In this document: in pieces, positions 11,076-61,949 of the stretch
Layout: each line of letters starts with the position of its first letter
How positions within the stretch are numbered: the first letter of the stretch is position 1
From: Chloroflexota bacterium
Lineage (GTDB): Bacteria > Chloroflexota > Dehalococcoidia > Lucifugimonadales > GCA-002723415
Assembly (NCBI GenBank): GCA_002721445.1
Contig: PBKN01000009.1
Coordinates: forward strand, 16,242-80,241
Direction: 5' to 3'
Length of the DNA stretch: 64,000 nucleotides
Translations under genes and position numbers: made by a program
Notes under the pieces: generated by a model
What the model was told of the DNA's origin: nothing
What the model saw: the letters and a program-made list of their open reading frames with translations, nothing else
The model's database searches: none

Positions 11076-11867
11076 TTAATACCACAGAACACCAGTAAAA
11101 TTAGTATCTAAAACTATATCCATCCCTAATGCACAACCGAGCAAAATACTTAAGAAACCTGCTATAAAAATAATTGAATTACCTAATTTTTCAGATTTAT
11201 ATGAAAATGCAAATGGTAATGCCAATACCAAAGTCATTAATGCCATTGAAACCATTGTTCCTATTGAAAAACAAAGTAAAAATATTACACCAGTAAAAAA
11301 TGAATCAGATGTAGGTAATATAGCTAGTAATACAGCTGCACTACCCGCTAAACCATGTACTAAACCTATTAAATAAGATTTAAAACGAAAAAAAGGAATC
11401 AGTTCAGGAAGAAATCCGTGTTTAGTTTCTTCATGTGGGTTAACTTCAGATTTAATTTCCTCGCTTGTATGACTATGTGATCCATGCATATGCTTGTGAG
11501 CTTCATCATCATGTTCATGTGAATGAATATGAAATTCTCCTTTATATATTTTCCAAAAGACTTGCAATCCCAATAAAATCAGCATAATAGCTACACCAAA
11601 TTCAAAATATGTTGCAACAGATTCGTACAAATCCATTGCTGCCTGTTTTAAAAAAAGTATAATTAAGCCTAGTATTATTAATGGAGTAGAGTGACCTAGG
11701 CCCCAAGACAAGCCAACCCATAGACCTTTAAAAACACTTTTATAATCTCTTGCTAAAGTTGAAACTGCTACAACATGGTCTCCATCAGTAGAATGTTTTA
11801 AACCAATTATCAACCCAATGCTAATTGCCGAAATAATGCCTGAAAAACGAATTAATTCATGTTCCAA
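11076..11867 (-). CDS. nickel/cobalt transporter (NiCoT/RcnA-like) with His-rich loop
   Basis: HX4DH-type signature GLKHSTDGDHVVAV. Central loop HIHSHEHDDEAHKHMHGSHSH. Six or more TM helices. Confidence 0.65.
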   Translation of the reverse strand: MEHELIRFSGIISAISIGLIIGLKHSTDGDHVVAVSTLARDYKSVFKGLWVGLSWGLGHSTPLIILGLIILFLKQAAMDLYESVATYFEFGVAIMLILLGLQVFWKIYKGEFHIHSHEHDDEAHKHMHGSHSHTSEEIKSEVNPHEETKHGFLPELIPFFRFKSYLIGLVHGLAGSAAVLLAILPTSDSFFTGVIFLLCFSIGTMVSMALMTLVLALPFAFSYKSEKLGNSIIFIAGFLSILLGCALGMDIVLDTNFTGVLWY

Positions 11868-11955
11868 TTTGTTAACTCTTTCATGATGATTTTATTAAAA
11901 AATTAAGTATAAATTTATTATACATTAGGAAATATAAGAAATAAAAGTTAGTATA

Positions 11956-13371
11956 TTAGGCACGTATAGGTTTTCCACAATTTGATGAATAATCGATGTT
12001 TTCATTTTCGATAACAAAAATTCCATTTACAATCAAATGTACTATTCCTTCAGAAATCGCACTAGGATTTGAATATGTAGATTTATTAATTATACTATCA
12101 GGATTAAATACTACTAAATCAGCATCAGCCCCTAATTTAATACGGCCTTTATTTTTCATATTTGGAACTAAGTTTTCTAATCTTTTAGCAGGCATAAAAC
12201 TCATTTTTCTAATTGCATCAATTAAAGTAATTAATTTTCTCTCTCGAACATATTTACCTAGAATCATAGAATAAGACCCCGTAGTCCTAGGATGACCTTT
12301 ACCTTTTTTGATATATCCATCAGTAGCAATCATAGTTATATCACTTTTAACAGCTATATCAACAACATCATTTGACATAGAATGTAATATAACCATGCCT
12401 CCTTTTGATCTATATTTATCAAATGAAATTTTATTTAATCTTTCGCCAGTTTCTGGCCATTCTAAATCTTTGTAATCCATACCAGTTTTTTCCTGCCAAC
12501 CTTCATCAAATAAAGGAGCTTCAATTCCAGTCATTCCGGCAGCATAAGGATAGCATTCTGTAGTAATGTCTAAACCTTTACTAGAAGCATCTTTAATCAT
12601 TGATAACAATTTAGGGACCATTACATTGCCACTACTATTAATATGCACTAAATGTAATGATGCGCCAGTAATACTAGAAGCGGCAATTAATTCTGAAAGC
12701 CCTTGAATTGCATCGTTCCCAGGTGAAGCTCCCCACCCTCTCATATGTACATGGCAAACTGCATTGTATAAAGCAGCTATACGAAAAACTTCAATTATTT
12801 CCCACCAAGAAGCACCTGGAGTGTAAGCAATTCCTAAACCAACGCATACTGCTCCTTCTTTTAATCCTTTTGATATCATAGATTTTATGTTAATAATTTC
12901 TTCACTAGATGCTTCTTTATGAGCACCATCTCCTACTGGAAGTCTTACTATATCACCTTTAAATTTTTCCTCTTTTAGACTTATACAAGCTGCATCTTTC
13001 ATAACCATCATTCTTATAGGGATATGCCCAATACTAACTCCATAATTAATTGGAGACATATCTTCTCTTGCTTTATACCAATTAACTACATCATCAGTTC
13101 CAAGTTCCAATTCTAATGCAGAAGTAACTCCGTCAGATGCTTGTAAAAAATAATTTTCTCTATCTTGACCATGTGAATGTAAATCAATAAAACCTGGAGA
13201 TATGACTAAGCCTGAAATATTTAATTCTTTATCTCCTTTTATAGAATCTTTACCTAAATATTTAATTACTCCATTATCTATTCCCAAATTCCCTATAAAA
13301 TCCGTCCCACTTTCGGGGTCTATTATGCGCCCATTTAATAAAACAATTTGATATCTTTGAAGCATTTTCAA
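11956..13371 (-). CDS. amidohydrolase, N-acyl-D-amino-acid (D-Glu/D-Asp-type) deacylase-like
   Basis: N-terminal beta-sandwich, then PGFIDLHSHG metal-binding HxH. C-terminal GADADLVVF typical of the D-aminoacylase subfamily. Confidence 0.65.
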   Translation of the reverse strand: MKMLQRYQIVLLNGRIIDPESGTDFIGNLGIDNGVIKYLGKDSIKGDKELNISGLVISPGFIDLHSHGQDRENYFLQASDGVTSALELELGTDDVVNWYKAREDMSPINYGVSIGHIPIRMMVMKDAACISLKEEKFKGDIVRLPVGDGAHKEASSEEIINIKSMISKGLKEGAVCVGLGIAYTPGASWWEIIEVFRIAALYNAVCHVHMRGWGASPGNDAIQGLSELIAASSITGASLHLVHINSSGNVMVPKLLSMIKDASSKGLDITTECYPYAAGMTGIEAPLFDEGWQEKTGMDYKDLEWPETGERLNKISFDKYRSKGGMVILHSMSNDVVDIAVKSDITMIATDGYIKKGKGHPRTTGSYSMILGKYVRERKLITLIDAIRKMSFMPAKRLENLVPNMKNKGRIKLGADADLVVFNPDSIINKSTYSNPSAISEGIVHLIVNGIFVIENENIDYSSNCGKPIRA

Positions 13372-46113: not shown

Positions 46114-46374
46114 TTATAATTTAGCTTTAACTATTGCTTTCAATTCTTTCATTCGAGTCAAAGTTGGAGTTTCACCATTTTCATCTTTTTTGTCATAAAT
46201 CTCTTCATTATCTAATATCACTTTTAAAACTCCTGAATCACCTGGGGTTAAAGTTATAGCAATATTTCCAGCTCCAACACTATAGAATTCAGCAACCATC
46301 CAGGCTGCTACAGCATGGTAACCTCAAGGAACGCAGTATTTTATCTCCATATTTATCTTTGATTTAAATGACAT
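46114..46374 (-). CDS. Rdx/SelW-like selenoprotein (TGA at 46324..46326 read as Sec)
   Basis: Hand translation: MSFKSKINMEIKYCVP-TGA-GYHAVAAWMVAEFYSVG...GVLKVILDNEEIYDKK..G..P. This matches the CxxU motif plus the Rdx fold pattern. AAGGA lies 6 nt before ATG 46374. ATG 46350 is an alternative start. Confidence 0.7.
46290..46310 (-). promoter_or_regulatory. candidate bacterial SECIS hairpin for the SelW-like gene
   Basis: mRNA U-AGCAGCC-[UGGAU]-GGUUGCU-G. The stem is 8 bp (two G-U) and starts 14 nt after UGA. The G-containing apical loop starts 22 nt after UGA. Confidence 0.5.
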
Positions 46375-59379: not shown

Positions 59380-60096
59380 TTATTGACTATTAAAATTAGT
59401 TAAAGCTTTATTAGCCGCATCAAATTCTGCTAAAGATATTTTATTAGCTTTACCTATTCCATAAGATTTAAGATTCTGTTTCTTAAAGCCTATTTTAACC
59501 TCTACAATAAATATTTTATCTTTGCCTTTATCAATAACCTCTAACAAATCATATATTGGAGATAAATAACCTTTTTGTTGAACTAATTCTTGTAAGGTTG
59601 ATTTTGAATCTTTAAATTCAGATAATTTAAGAACATTTTTAATTTCATTACTAAAAGTTTTAATTAAAAAATCATACGTAAAATTAAAACCTTGATCAAG
59701 ATATATTGCGCCTACAATTGCTTCAAACGCATCTGATAAATTAGAATCTTTTTCTCTTCCTAAGGATTTTTCTTCACCTATCCCAATATATAAGAAAAAA
59801 CCTAACTTGAAAGACTTAGCGAGTTTTGCTAATGTCGATTTTCTTGCTAAGGCTGATCTAAATAATGTAAGATCCCCTTGATCATAAATAAAAAAGTTTT
59901 TGTATCCATAGTCAGCTAAGACCAATCCTATTAATGCATCTCCTAGAAATTCTAATCTTTCGTTAGAATCGCTATGAATTAAAGGATTTTCATTAATATA
60001 TGAAGAATGAACAAGAGCTAAATCTAATAGATCTTCGTTCATAAAATTTACACCCAAATTATTTTGTAAAATTTTCAGATTTTCTTTTTTTGACAT
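59380..60096 (-). CDS. rnc: ribonuclease III
   Basis: NERLEFLGDA signature and a C-terminal dsRBD. Confidence 0.88.
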   Translation of the reverse strand: MSKKENLKILQNNLGVNFMNEDLLDLALVHSSYINENPLIHSDSNERLEFLGDALIGLVLADYGYKNFFIYDQGDLTLFRSALARKSTLAKLAKSFKLGFFLYIGIGEEKSLGREKDSNLSDAFEAIVGAIYLDQGFNFTYDFLIKTFSNEIKNVLKLSEFKDSKSTLQELVQQKGYLSPIYDLLEVIDKGKDKIFIVEVKIGFKKQNLKSYGIGKANKISLAEFDAANKALTNFNSQ

Positions 60097-60102
60097 AAGT
60101 AT

Positions 60103-60732
60103 TTACTTTTTAATACCTTTAGGCCAGGGTGGTTGTGGACGTTTTAATTCTCCAATAAATGGCATATCTCTGAAAATCTTAACTATATATTCAAAAAAAA
60201 TAATATAATCATCTTTATCCTTGGGGATAAATGTTTTAATAAACACTGCCTGCTCGTTATCAAAAACCAAAGTGGGAGTCCCAAATACACCATACTTTTG
60301 GACACCTTCCTGATGATCTTTTTTAACATTAATTATTAATTGAGGGTTATTAAAATCATCAATAAATTTATTTCTATCTAATCCAACATCAACTGCTAAA
60401 TCAAGAAATTTATTAAAATCATTTAATGGAAACCTAGGTGACATGTTATTTCTAGCATGAAGTACTGCGTAATGAAATCGTTCAAATAAATTTTGACCTT
60501 GTAATTTTGCTGATTCAGCACATACTGCAGATAATAAAGATCTAGTTTTTGATAAATCTTTACTTTCGATTTCAAAGATCGAAGAATCTTCCATTTTAGC
60601 TTCTTCAAGCTGAAAATGACGCCATTCAAATATCAATTGATCATTCTTTATATTTTTTACTTCTTGCAACCAAACTGTTGCGTTATATACGAAAGGTCAA
60701 GAATAATCATAATATATTATAAACTTGTCCAT
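60103..60732 (-). CDS. DsbA/kappa-GST-like thioredoxin-fold selenoprotein (TGA at 60697..60699 read as Sec)
   Basis: Hand translation upstream of the track's TTG start: MDKFIIYYDYS-TGA-PFVYNATVW-LQEVKN.... The TGA occupies the catalytic C/S-P position of the (F/Y)xD(x)xx[C/S]P(F/W/Y) motif. The C-terminal GVFGTPTLVF is the cis-Pro loop. GAAGG lies 7 nt before ATG 60732. Confidence 0.6.
60666..60681 (-). promoter_or_regulatory. candidate SECIS hairpin for the DsbA-like gene
   Basis: mRNA GCAAC-[AGUUUG]-GUUGC. The 5-bp stem starts 16 nt after UGA and the loop starts 21 nt after UGA. The stem is short, so this needs folding and covariation support. Confidence 0.35.
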
Positions 60733-60916
60733 AAAATTACCTTCAATTTAATTAAGTTAATAATTATTTAATAAAATTATACAATATAAAAGTTAAAGTA
60801 AATATTAGACTTTTCTTATATTTATAAAAAAATAGACCTAATTCTACTTTTAATTACTAAATTTCACATGCTAGCATAATACAAATAATATTATTTAAAT
60901 TTAAAGTCCAATTATT

Positions 60917-61477
60917 ATGCAACTTAAAATAACTGGTGGCACATATAAAGGAAAGAGATTAAAAACAAATAAAAATGCACAATTAAGACCAACAACAGAA
61001 AAAACAAGATTAGCAATTTTTTCAATACTAGGTAAAGATTTTTTTAAAGAAATTAAGGTATTAGAATTATATGCTGGGACTGGTATTTTTGGAATTGAAT
61101 CCTTAAGCAGAGGTGCAAGCTGGGTAGACATGGTAGAAATCAATCCTAAAACATTTAAAGAAATCAAAAACAATCTATCAGATTTGATGTTAGAAAATAA
61201 ATCAAATGTAAAGCTAGGAGATTCAATCAAATCGTTAAAATATTTTGATAATAAATACAAATTAATTTTTGCTGACCCACCTTATAATTCATTTGAACCA
61301 AAAGAATTAATTGAAAACATAAATAATCAAAATATTTTAGATACAAATGGATTATTAATAATAGAACATAAAAATCAATTAAAAATTGAAACTAAATACA
61401 ATCAGATGAAATGTATATCAAAAAGAAAATATGGAGATTCTGCTATTTCTATATTTAAAAAGGAGAATAATGGCTAA
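60917..61477 (+). CDS. rsmD: 16S rRNA (guanine966-N2)-methyltransferase
   Basis: G.....L.....LRPT..K.R.AIF, LELYAGTG, FADPPY. Confidence 0.8.
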   Translation: MQLKITGGTYKGKRLKTNKNAQLRPTTEKTRLAIFSILGKDFFKEIKVLELYAGTGIFGIESLSRGASWVDMVEINPKTFKEIKNNLSDLMLENKSNVKLGDSIKSLKYFDNKYKLIFADPPYNSFEPKELIENINNQNILDTNGLLIIEHKNQLKIETKYNQMKCISKRKYGDSAISIFKKENNG

Positions 61478-61949
61478 AGCTATATATCCTGGAAGTTTCG
61501 ATCCTGTACATAATGGACATTTAGATATTGCTATAAGAGCTTCAAAGTTATTTGAAAAATTAACAGTTGCCGTCTATGATAAGCCTTTGAAAAATCTAAT
61601 GTTTAATACAGATCAAAGAATAGATATGTTCGCCAAATCTGTATTAAATTATAAAAATATTGAAGTAGTACCTTTTACAGAACTAGCACCTGATTTTGCT
61701 CGGAAAAAAAAAGCTGAATTTATAATTAGAGGATTAAGAGCCGGTTTTGACTTTGAACAAGAATTTGAAATGGCTTTAATGTGGCGTAATTTGGCTCCAG
61801 ACATAGATGTAGTCTGCATGATGAGTTCTTTATCCTACCAATTTTTATTTTCAAGTAGAATAAAAGAAGTAGCCAAACTTGGAGGAAAAATTGATAATTT
61901 GGTACCTGAATTAGTTTTAAAAAATATAAATAAAAAAATAAACAATTGA
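61470..61949 (+). CDS. coaD: phosphopantetheine adenylyltransferase
   Basis: AIYPGSFDPVHNGHLDI. AGGAG before ATG 61470. Overlaps the rsmD end by 8 nt. Confidence 0.9.
   Translation: MAKAIYPGSFDPVHNGHLDIAIRASKLFEKLTVAVYDKPLKNLMFNTDQRIDMFAKSVLNYKNIEVVPFTELAPDFARKKKAEFIIRGLRAGFDFEQEFEMALMWRNLAPDIDVVCMMSSLSYQFLFSSRIKEVAKLGGKIDNLVPELVLKNINKKINN

Follow-up and report, generated by a model that had tools for sequence, protein, structure and literature searches.

Does an in-frame TGA near the beginning of a bacterial gene end translation, or does it specify selenocysteine (Sec)? This question is raised by a 64,000-nucleotide stretch of Chloroflexota DNA from contig PBKN01000009.1 (the whole stretch is termed the window below), in which mechanical calling of open reading frames (ORFs) places a 188-aa ORF on the minus strand, running from TTG 60669 to 60103. 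Upstream of this start the same frame crosses a single TGA (60699-60697) and continues to an ATG at 60732-60730, which is preceded at a distance of 7 nt by the sequence GAAGG (60740..60744, minus strand); the original prediction had located all of these elements correctly. The complete coding sequence occupies 60103..60732 of the minus strand and comprises 209 codons, including UGA as codon 12, followed by the stop codon TAA (60105-60103). Its read-through translation, with the TGA shown as U, is MDKFIIYYDYS-U-PFVYNATVWLQEV..., 209 residues in length, and the gene contains no frame disruption besides the TGA. The evidence considered here makes it very probable that UGA codon 12 is selenocysteine and that this residue is the nucleophile of a cytoplasmic DsbA-like protein with a thioredoxin fold.

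The residues found at the corresponding position in related genes bear directly on the question. With each GTDB species represented by a single genome, a scan yielded 80 loci, and the codon aligned with the window TGA is TGA in 62 of these species loci and TGC or TGT in the remaining 18. TGA forms are carried by Dehalococcoidia/SAR202, other Chloroflexota and Thermomicrobiales, in genomes of 29 to 73% GC, and their carriers include the cultured Thermalbibacter longus. The Cys forms belong mostly to Dormiibacterota, with some in Thermomicrobiales. All 62 Sec-form species loci encode the motif U-P-[FYW]-[VA]. Cys also occupies the site in the full-length homologues P0005, P0006 and P0058-61, as CPY or CPF in the contexts ..DPACPYVYNAAVWL.. 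and ..YDYTCPYSYRALLWL.., so that the residue on which the original prediction depended is the expected one. The gene therefore displays the pattern by which bacterial selenoproteins are recognized, namely a UGA within the frame at a position where homologues have Cys, flanked on either side by conserved coding sequence. The best genome match is the AT-rich Chloroflexota metagenome-assembled genome (MAG) SP196 (60% identity, 29% GC), from which the window probably stems from an AT-rich lineage of marine Chloroflexota, and two metagenome scans for further AT-rich orthologues returned only locus L091, which is 99.8% identical to L009.

In one rival account the TGA truly terminates translation, the gene proper is the 188-aa ORF from TTG 60669, and the 11 codons upstream are a chance or leader ORF. 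Mechanical ORF calling gives exactly this product, and most of the 62 homologues retrieved from databases are about 190 aa long, the truncated ones that were read opening with MWL... or MHNAAVWL.... Against this, the orthologues L002, L004 and L009 (78, 65 and 60% identity, respectively) retain the whole segment from the ATG, which is at the same place, through the 11 codons to the TGA, while the codons flanking the TGA change synonymously (TCT, TCC or TCA before it; CCT, CCG or CCA after it). Synonymous changes on both sides of a preserved TGA are the signature of a Sec/Cys pair and rule out the reading as a leader ORF that ends in a stop; judged from these nucleotide comparisons, the 11 upstream codons evolve as coding sequence. 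The GAAGG ahead of the ATG may act as a Shine-Dalgarno-like element, and AGGGA or GGTG stands at its place in orthologues. Moreover, the ORF is continuous in 18 species, where the site holds a sense codon for Cys, and the supposed GTG and TTG starts encode Val and Leu in a conserved NAAVWL segment, located inside an RNA hairpin described below. The truncated product would also be deprived of the first strand and the catalytic residue of its fold, yet the Pfam alignment starts at residue 5. A genuine stop is accordingly very unlikely.

An error in the DNA or in its assembly could likewise place a TGA at a Cys position, if a TGC or TGT codon had mutated in a pseudogene or had been misread. TGA and TGC differ by one base, and some TGA forms do have near relatives with a true TGC allele (P0006/L094 versus L025; P0005/L090). 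The identical TGA is present, however, in an independent assembly (L001, 99% protein identity) and recurs over several assemblies for each orthologue type (L002/L003, L004-L008, L009/L091). Its conservation in 62 species and the otherwise undisturbed frame point the same way, and an artefact or a decaying gene is extremely improbable.

The read-through product, with Cys substituted for the TGA, matches the Pfam domain DSBA (PF01323) with 56.8 bits against a cut-off of 25.6 (E 3.4e-15), over residues 5-163, which correspond to model positions 3-177 of 191. Since the match extends from residue 5, the domain begins upstream of the TGA, and the profile search that the original prediction had proposed thus takes in the strand lying ahead of the TTG. 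Both the score and the order of the structural elements place the protein in the DSBA thioredoxin-fold family. The fold was read from the model that AlphaFold2 (AF2) gives for P0005, a natural Cys homologue 47% identical to the window protein (predicted local distance difference test, pLDDT, 90.8). Its elements follow in the order E4-10, H15-31, E35-41, helices 44-150, E157-160, E165-168 and H175-189, i.e., a thioredoxin fold of the type strand-helix-strand, helical insert, strand-strand-helix. In this model Cys14 directly precedes helix 1 (H15), and T155-P156, the T-P of the GVFGTPT loop, directly precedes strand 3 (E157). The Sec of the window protein, encoded at 60697..60699 within D-Y-S-U-P-F-V-Y, would accordingly lie at the N-terminus of helix 1 as the catalytic nucleophile, as indicated by the Sec/Cys column. 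A C-terminal segment, GELKRPQPPWPKG, is invariant across the Dehalococcoidia group and is modelled with low confidence in P0005. No NCBIfam model recognizes the family; Pfam returns a weak Rv2466c-like match, and the scores for the subfamilies of Rv2466c, FrnE, DsbM, kappa GST and HCCA isomerase remain under their cut-offs.

A different question is whether TGA is a stop codon at all in this organism, since it could have been reassigned to Trp (genetic code 4) or Gly (code 25), in which case the residue would not be Sec. The GC content of the window, 29.8%, is typical of recoded lineages, and the gene calls of three orthologues in ENA have W at the site. The codon usage of the window speaks otherwise: 61 long ORFs end in TAA (48), TGA (7) or TAG (6), and Trp, at 1.3% of codons, is always encoded by TGG. 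Furthermore, a six-frame search for TGA read-through across the 64 kb gave only two credible interrupted frames, the DsbA-like gene and a SelW-like gene, in both of which the TGA falls at a redox-motif position. These three features together exclude codes 4 and 25 and indicate that TGA is normally a stop. Other TGA-interrupted frames in the window are of low complexity or lie antisense to annotated ORFs. The same TGA is found in relatives of 60-73% GC, and its column holds Cys in homologues, not Trp or Gly. As for the three proteins with W (P0001-P0003, full-length ENA entries from AT-rich contigs, corresponding to L001-L003), their loci carry TGA and do not yield these proteins under translation table 11, so that they represent code-4 gene calls. 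Reassignment of the codon has a negligible probability.

The second interrupted frame is a selenoprotein gene of the SelW/SelT/SelH (Rdx) type at 46114..46374 on the minus strand, 14.4 kb away, with its TGA (46326-46324) in the motif C-V-P-U. It passes the thresholds of both Pfam Rdx (25.3 bits versus 22.6) and TIGR02174, CXXU_selWTH (34.9 versus 34.2 bits), and the hairpin after its UGA folds at -18.1 kcal/mol, with a loop, UGGAU, that starts 22 nt after the UGA. The original prediction had argued from two genes with TGA at a redox site that the organism decodes selenocysteine, and both genes withstood examination; the SelW-like gene lends independent, though indirect, support to the decoding of UGA as Sec in this genome.

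The RNA following the UGA of the DsbA-like gene contains a putative apical hairpin of a bacterial selenocysteine insertion sequence (SECIS) at 60666..60681 on the minus strand. It consists of a 5' arm, GCAAC (60681-60677), a loop, AGUUUG (60676-60671), and a 3' arm, GUUGC (60670-60666), at the coordinates originally given for it; the loop begins at the 21st nt after the UGA, and the mis-called TTG start falls within the 3' arm. The bacterial SECIS (bSECIS) model specifies a loop of 3-9 nt, a stem of 4-16 bp, a G among the first two nucleotides of the loop, and a distance of 16-37 nt between UGA and loop (PMC13188914). The window element, with a 5-bp stem, a 6-nt loop in which G comes second, and 20 nt from UGA to loop, lies within this geometry. 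It shares with the model of Zhang and Gladyshev the placement of the hairpin in the coding region, the loop, stem and spacing, and a loop whose second base, G, is succeeded by a U. A scan of 60500-60800 against Rfam, with E values up to 10, gave two chance matches and no SECIS family.

The hairpin is a property of the family. In an ungapped 48-nt alignment of 65 Sec-form sequences, extending from the UGA to +45, it occupies the same columns in nearly all of them, most commonly as GCAGCC-GUGU-GGCUGC/G. Many Sec forms add a lower stem, UGACCCU/AGGGUCA, which pairs the UGA itself and which the window sequence lacks. The GCAAC/GUUGC arms of the window fall in the columns of the family hairpin, with a double change from G-C to A-U at pair 22-31, and the loop AGUUUG occurs in L030 and L067 as well. 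Folding energies in GC-rich relatives range from -12 to -21 kcal/mol, with z-scores down to -3.3. The hairpin is absent from the Cys forms of Dormiibacterota, and in three Sec forms that encode AAVLL in place of AAVWL (L057, L058 and L084) another hairpin stands equally far from the UGA; both of these facts fit a constraint acting at the level of the RNA. The stems of these alternative hairpins are CGCCGC...GCGGCG in L057 and L058 and GCCGC...GCGGC in L084, and their loops of 12-13 nt exceed the 3-9 nt of the bSECIS model.

Several points nevertheless weigh against selenocysteine, and they are best considered beside further results on the RNA that speak in its favour. RNAalifold recovered only three pairs from the 65-sequence alignment, and the named two-stem structure was therefore tested instead: 73% of its cells are paired, compared with 31-42% after a shift of the partner columns by 1-3 positions, and its four core pairs are formed in at least 58 of the 63 distinct sequences. 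Since conservation of the peptide NAAVWL, which this RNA encodes, leaves little true covariation, codon choice was used as a test in those Sec-form genomes whose GC content is 55% or more. The codons observed were GCA for Ala6 in 36 of 44 sequences (5.0 expected), AGR for Arg12 in 20 of 21 (3.9 expected), AAT for Asn5 in 30 of 37 (9.6 expected) and CTG for Leu10 in 41 of 44 (14.7 expected), counts that are not independent events, as the sequences are related by phylogeny. Synonymous sites should be randomized at 35-60% protein identity in spite of this kinship, and from these codon counts the stems in GC-rich relatives are held by synonymous codons that are rare in the sequences' own flanks. 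In the window itself the hairpin taken alone, over 45 nt, has an energy of -6.1 kcal/mol and a z-score of -0.49, with 56 of 200 shuffled sequences folding at least as well. Longer stretches reach -7.0 (63 nt) and -7.9 (73 nt) kcal/mol, and the range of -6.1 to -7.9, in an AT-rich genome, straddles the bSECIS limit of -7.5 kcal/mol or lower (PMC13188914). A U.U mismatch takes the place of pair 22-31 in L002 and L004, which represent the orthologue types closest to the window gene. The 64-kb window holds no selA, selB, selD or tRNA-Sec, and a literature search found no experimental evidence of selenium incorporation in this family.

Comparison with orthologues, which the original prediction had called for, has a divided outcome: the window hairpin sits exactly where the family-wide SECIS-like hairpin does, but by itself it is no better than chance. 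This leaves room for a further account, in which the gene was inherited as a selenoprotein gene and its SECIS has decayed in an AT-rich, streamlined genome, so that the UGA is read inefficiently or by near-cognate tRNAs (as Trp or Cys), or the product is mostly an 11-mer. The shortness and low stability of the hairpin, the mismatch in the nearest orthologues, the missing lower stem of the GC-rich relatives and the lack of Sec machinery within the window all agree with such decay. On the other hand, the position of the hairpin, its loop and the compensated A-U pair have been kept, and the TGA has been retained and not exchanged for TGY over four diverged AT-rich orthologue types. The strong hairpin of the second selenoprotein gene in the same window also argues against it, and decay of the signal is unlikely. 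The SECIS of the AT-rich clade is, on the reading preferred here, minimal.

Some TGC alleles have kept the RNA element. P0006 (L094, 501-620) and P0005 (L090, 7440-7559) encode Cys and retain the whole SECIS-like hairpin, AATGCAGCCGTGTGGCTGGATAGGGT. Locus L025 of the GTDB set is identical to P0006 save for two residues over the first ~46 compared, yet it has TGA, and the pair looks like a very recent switch between Sec and Cys in which the SECIS has not yet decayed. Among the other Cys forms, those on the soil MAG contigs L072, L076 and L088, labelled Eisenbacteria, Nitrosotalea and Micrarchaeaceae, are near-identical to the Cys forms of Dormiibacterota contigs, which suggests that these contigs are mis-binned in their MAGs.

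The machinery for selenocysteine was also sought among the genes of the window and of related loci. The only tRNA in the window is tRNA-Lys, and the nine ORFs of a size compatible with SelA, SelB or SelD encode GAPDH, COX1, COX2, a GNAT protein, an amidohydrolase, a photolyase, NhaA, enolase and ThrRS. No tRNA-Sec lies near the DsbA-like gene in 60 related loci. In the GC-rich SAR202 locus L089, a gene with a Pfam SelA match (11588-12733), situated roughly 1 kb away from the DsbA-like gene, proved to encode a pyridoxal phosphate (PLP)-dependent lyase of the DgaE family (selA_rel) and not a selenocysteine synthase. Elsewhere in the phylum, SelA, SelB and SelD are present in the cultured Chloroflexi Sphaerobacter, Thermomicrobium, Nitrolancetus and Dehalogenimonas (PMC5029168, supplement), and Dehalococcoidia MAGs, with 46-49 selenoprotein genes, are among the most selenoprotein-rich bacteria (PMC13326102).

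Under the selenocysteine reading, translation would start at ATG 60732 and the ribosome would arrive at the UGA at 60699-60697, where the stem-loop 16-31 nt downstream (60681-60666) may serve as the bacterial SECIS. This element would recruit SelB together with Sec-tRNA(Sec), whereby Sec would be inserted and termination avoided. As to the product, the motif U-P-F-V has no Cys at position +3, the second Cys of the protein (residue 71) is not conserved, and the protein opens directly with strand 1, leaving no signal peptide. From these features, and with the model of the Cys homologue, we infer a cytoplasmic, single-domain DsbA-like enzyme with one selenol. Its predicted active site, D-x-x-U-P-F-V-Y, would face the T-P of a putative cis-proline loop (GVFGTPT). 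As a resolving Cys is lacking, the enzyme would be expected to act through a single selenolate, possibly by forming a transient selenenyl-sulfide with its substrate or with a low-molecular-weight thiol. Such chemistry would be that of a monothiol reductase, isomerase or thiol-transferase, rather than that of an intramolecular U-x-x-C couple.

The gene adds to an already known kind of selenoprotein, in a class, Dehalococcoidia, known to be rich in them. A 2005 study of the Sargasso Sea described DsbA-like selenoproteins with a UxxC motif (Zhang, Fomenko and Gladyshev, PMC1088965), and a 2026 review distinguishes form 1 (UxxC) from form 2 (DxxUP), for which it lists Peng et al. 2016 (PMC13188914). 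The window gene shares with them the PF01323 domain, Sec in place of the N-terminal nucleophilic Cys, a marine metagenomic origin and a bacterial SECIS-like element directly after the UGA. Form 1 is not matched, since the U-P-F-V of the window protein has no Cys at +3, whereas D-Y-S-U-P within the PF01323 domain fits the motif of form 2, a likeness that lies at the level of the motif.

The closest solved fold is that of DR2335 from Deinococcus radiodurans (7DK9/7DKA), a single-Cys DsbA-like protein whose structure 7DK9 has a template-modelling (TM) score of 0.78 with the model of the Cys homologue, at 28-30% identity. The sequence alignment shows that it shares the F-D-F-x-C-P-Y start, the GVFGTPT loop and the R-R-P tail, and, as predicted for the window protein, it is cytoplasmic, with a single conserved residue of the Cys/Sec kind and no signal peptide. 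DR2335 is reported to have one conserved Cys only, no signal peptide and no known function (PMC8945050). It differs from the window protein in having Cys rather than Sec and in being without the invariant C-terminal GELKRPQPPWPKG. Rv2466c (a mycothiol-dependent reductase), FrnE, DsbM, kappa GST and HCCA isomerase are cytoplasmic proteins of the DsbA-like superfamily in which the thioredoxin fold has a helical insert and Pro comes after an N-terminal nucleophile, but are more distant (TM 0.59-0.68, 15-22% identity), and Rv2466c, FrnE and DsbM have CxxC motifs, unlike the window protein. Kappa GST and HCCA isomerase, at TM 0.59-0.62 and 15-18% identity, rank only 36-50 among the structural matches. 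These two enzymes use Ser and glutathione. The label "kappa-GST-like" that the gene had been given is thus only loosely apt: the fold class is shared, but with a TM of about 0.6 these enzymes are distant from it, and DR2335 stands nearer.

It is possible, although rather doubtful, that the orthogroup represents a distinct selenoenzyme, core to marine Dehalococcoidia/SAR202 and perhaps apart from the catalogued UxxC and DxxUP forms, in view of its single-selenol U-P-x-x motif, its GELKRPQPPWPKG tail and its placement beside rnc. If this were true, a hairpin of 5 bp and roughly -6 kcal/mol would be enough for SelB-dependent decoding in an AT-rich lineage, and the TGA and TGC alleles with intact SECIS (L025 versus L094) would represent Sec-to-Cys switching in progress.

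The genomic setting of the Sec forms differs from that of the Cys forms. The RNase III gene, rnc (59380..60096, minus strand; assigned from the Pfam annotation of orthologous loci), is a conserved and probable operon partner that lies 6 nt downstream of the DsbA-like gene in the window. Of the 62 Sec-form loci, 50 have rnc as the next gene downstream in the same orientation, versus 0 of 18 Cys-form loci. This pairing is conserved in genomes from 28% to about 70% GC and may reflect a functional link between the two genes. Divergent from the DsbA-like gene are rsmD and coaD (60917-61477 and 61431-61949), which overlap by 47 nt as mechanically called. Both L004 and the GC-rich L089 have the same order, rsmD, coaD <> dsbA-like > rnc ... 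glyA.

The finding has consequences for annotation, as the original prediction had anticipated in warning that standard ORF calling under-annotates such genes. Most of the homologues, at about 190 aa, are shorter than the 209 residues of the window protein, the truncated ones that were read starting at, or a few codons upstream of, the conserved Val GTG (or a TTG) inside the hairpin, and three more bear a spurious W. In nearly all public entries found, the gene is therefore either truncated, with a start codon chosen from within its SECIS hairpin, or falsely assigned Trp. The family-wide signature of a Sec/Cys column combined with a SECIS could be used as an annotation model. Existing knowledge of selenoprotein biology is unchanged by the finding; what it indicates, if UGA is indeed read as selenocysteine here, is that a very AT-rich, streamlined lineage of marine Chloroflexota still invests in Sec decoding, which bears on the selenium demand of the ocean.

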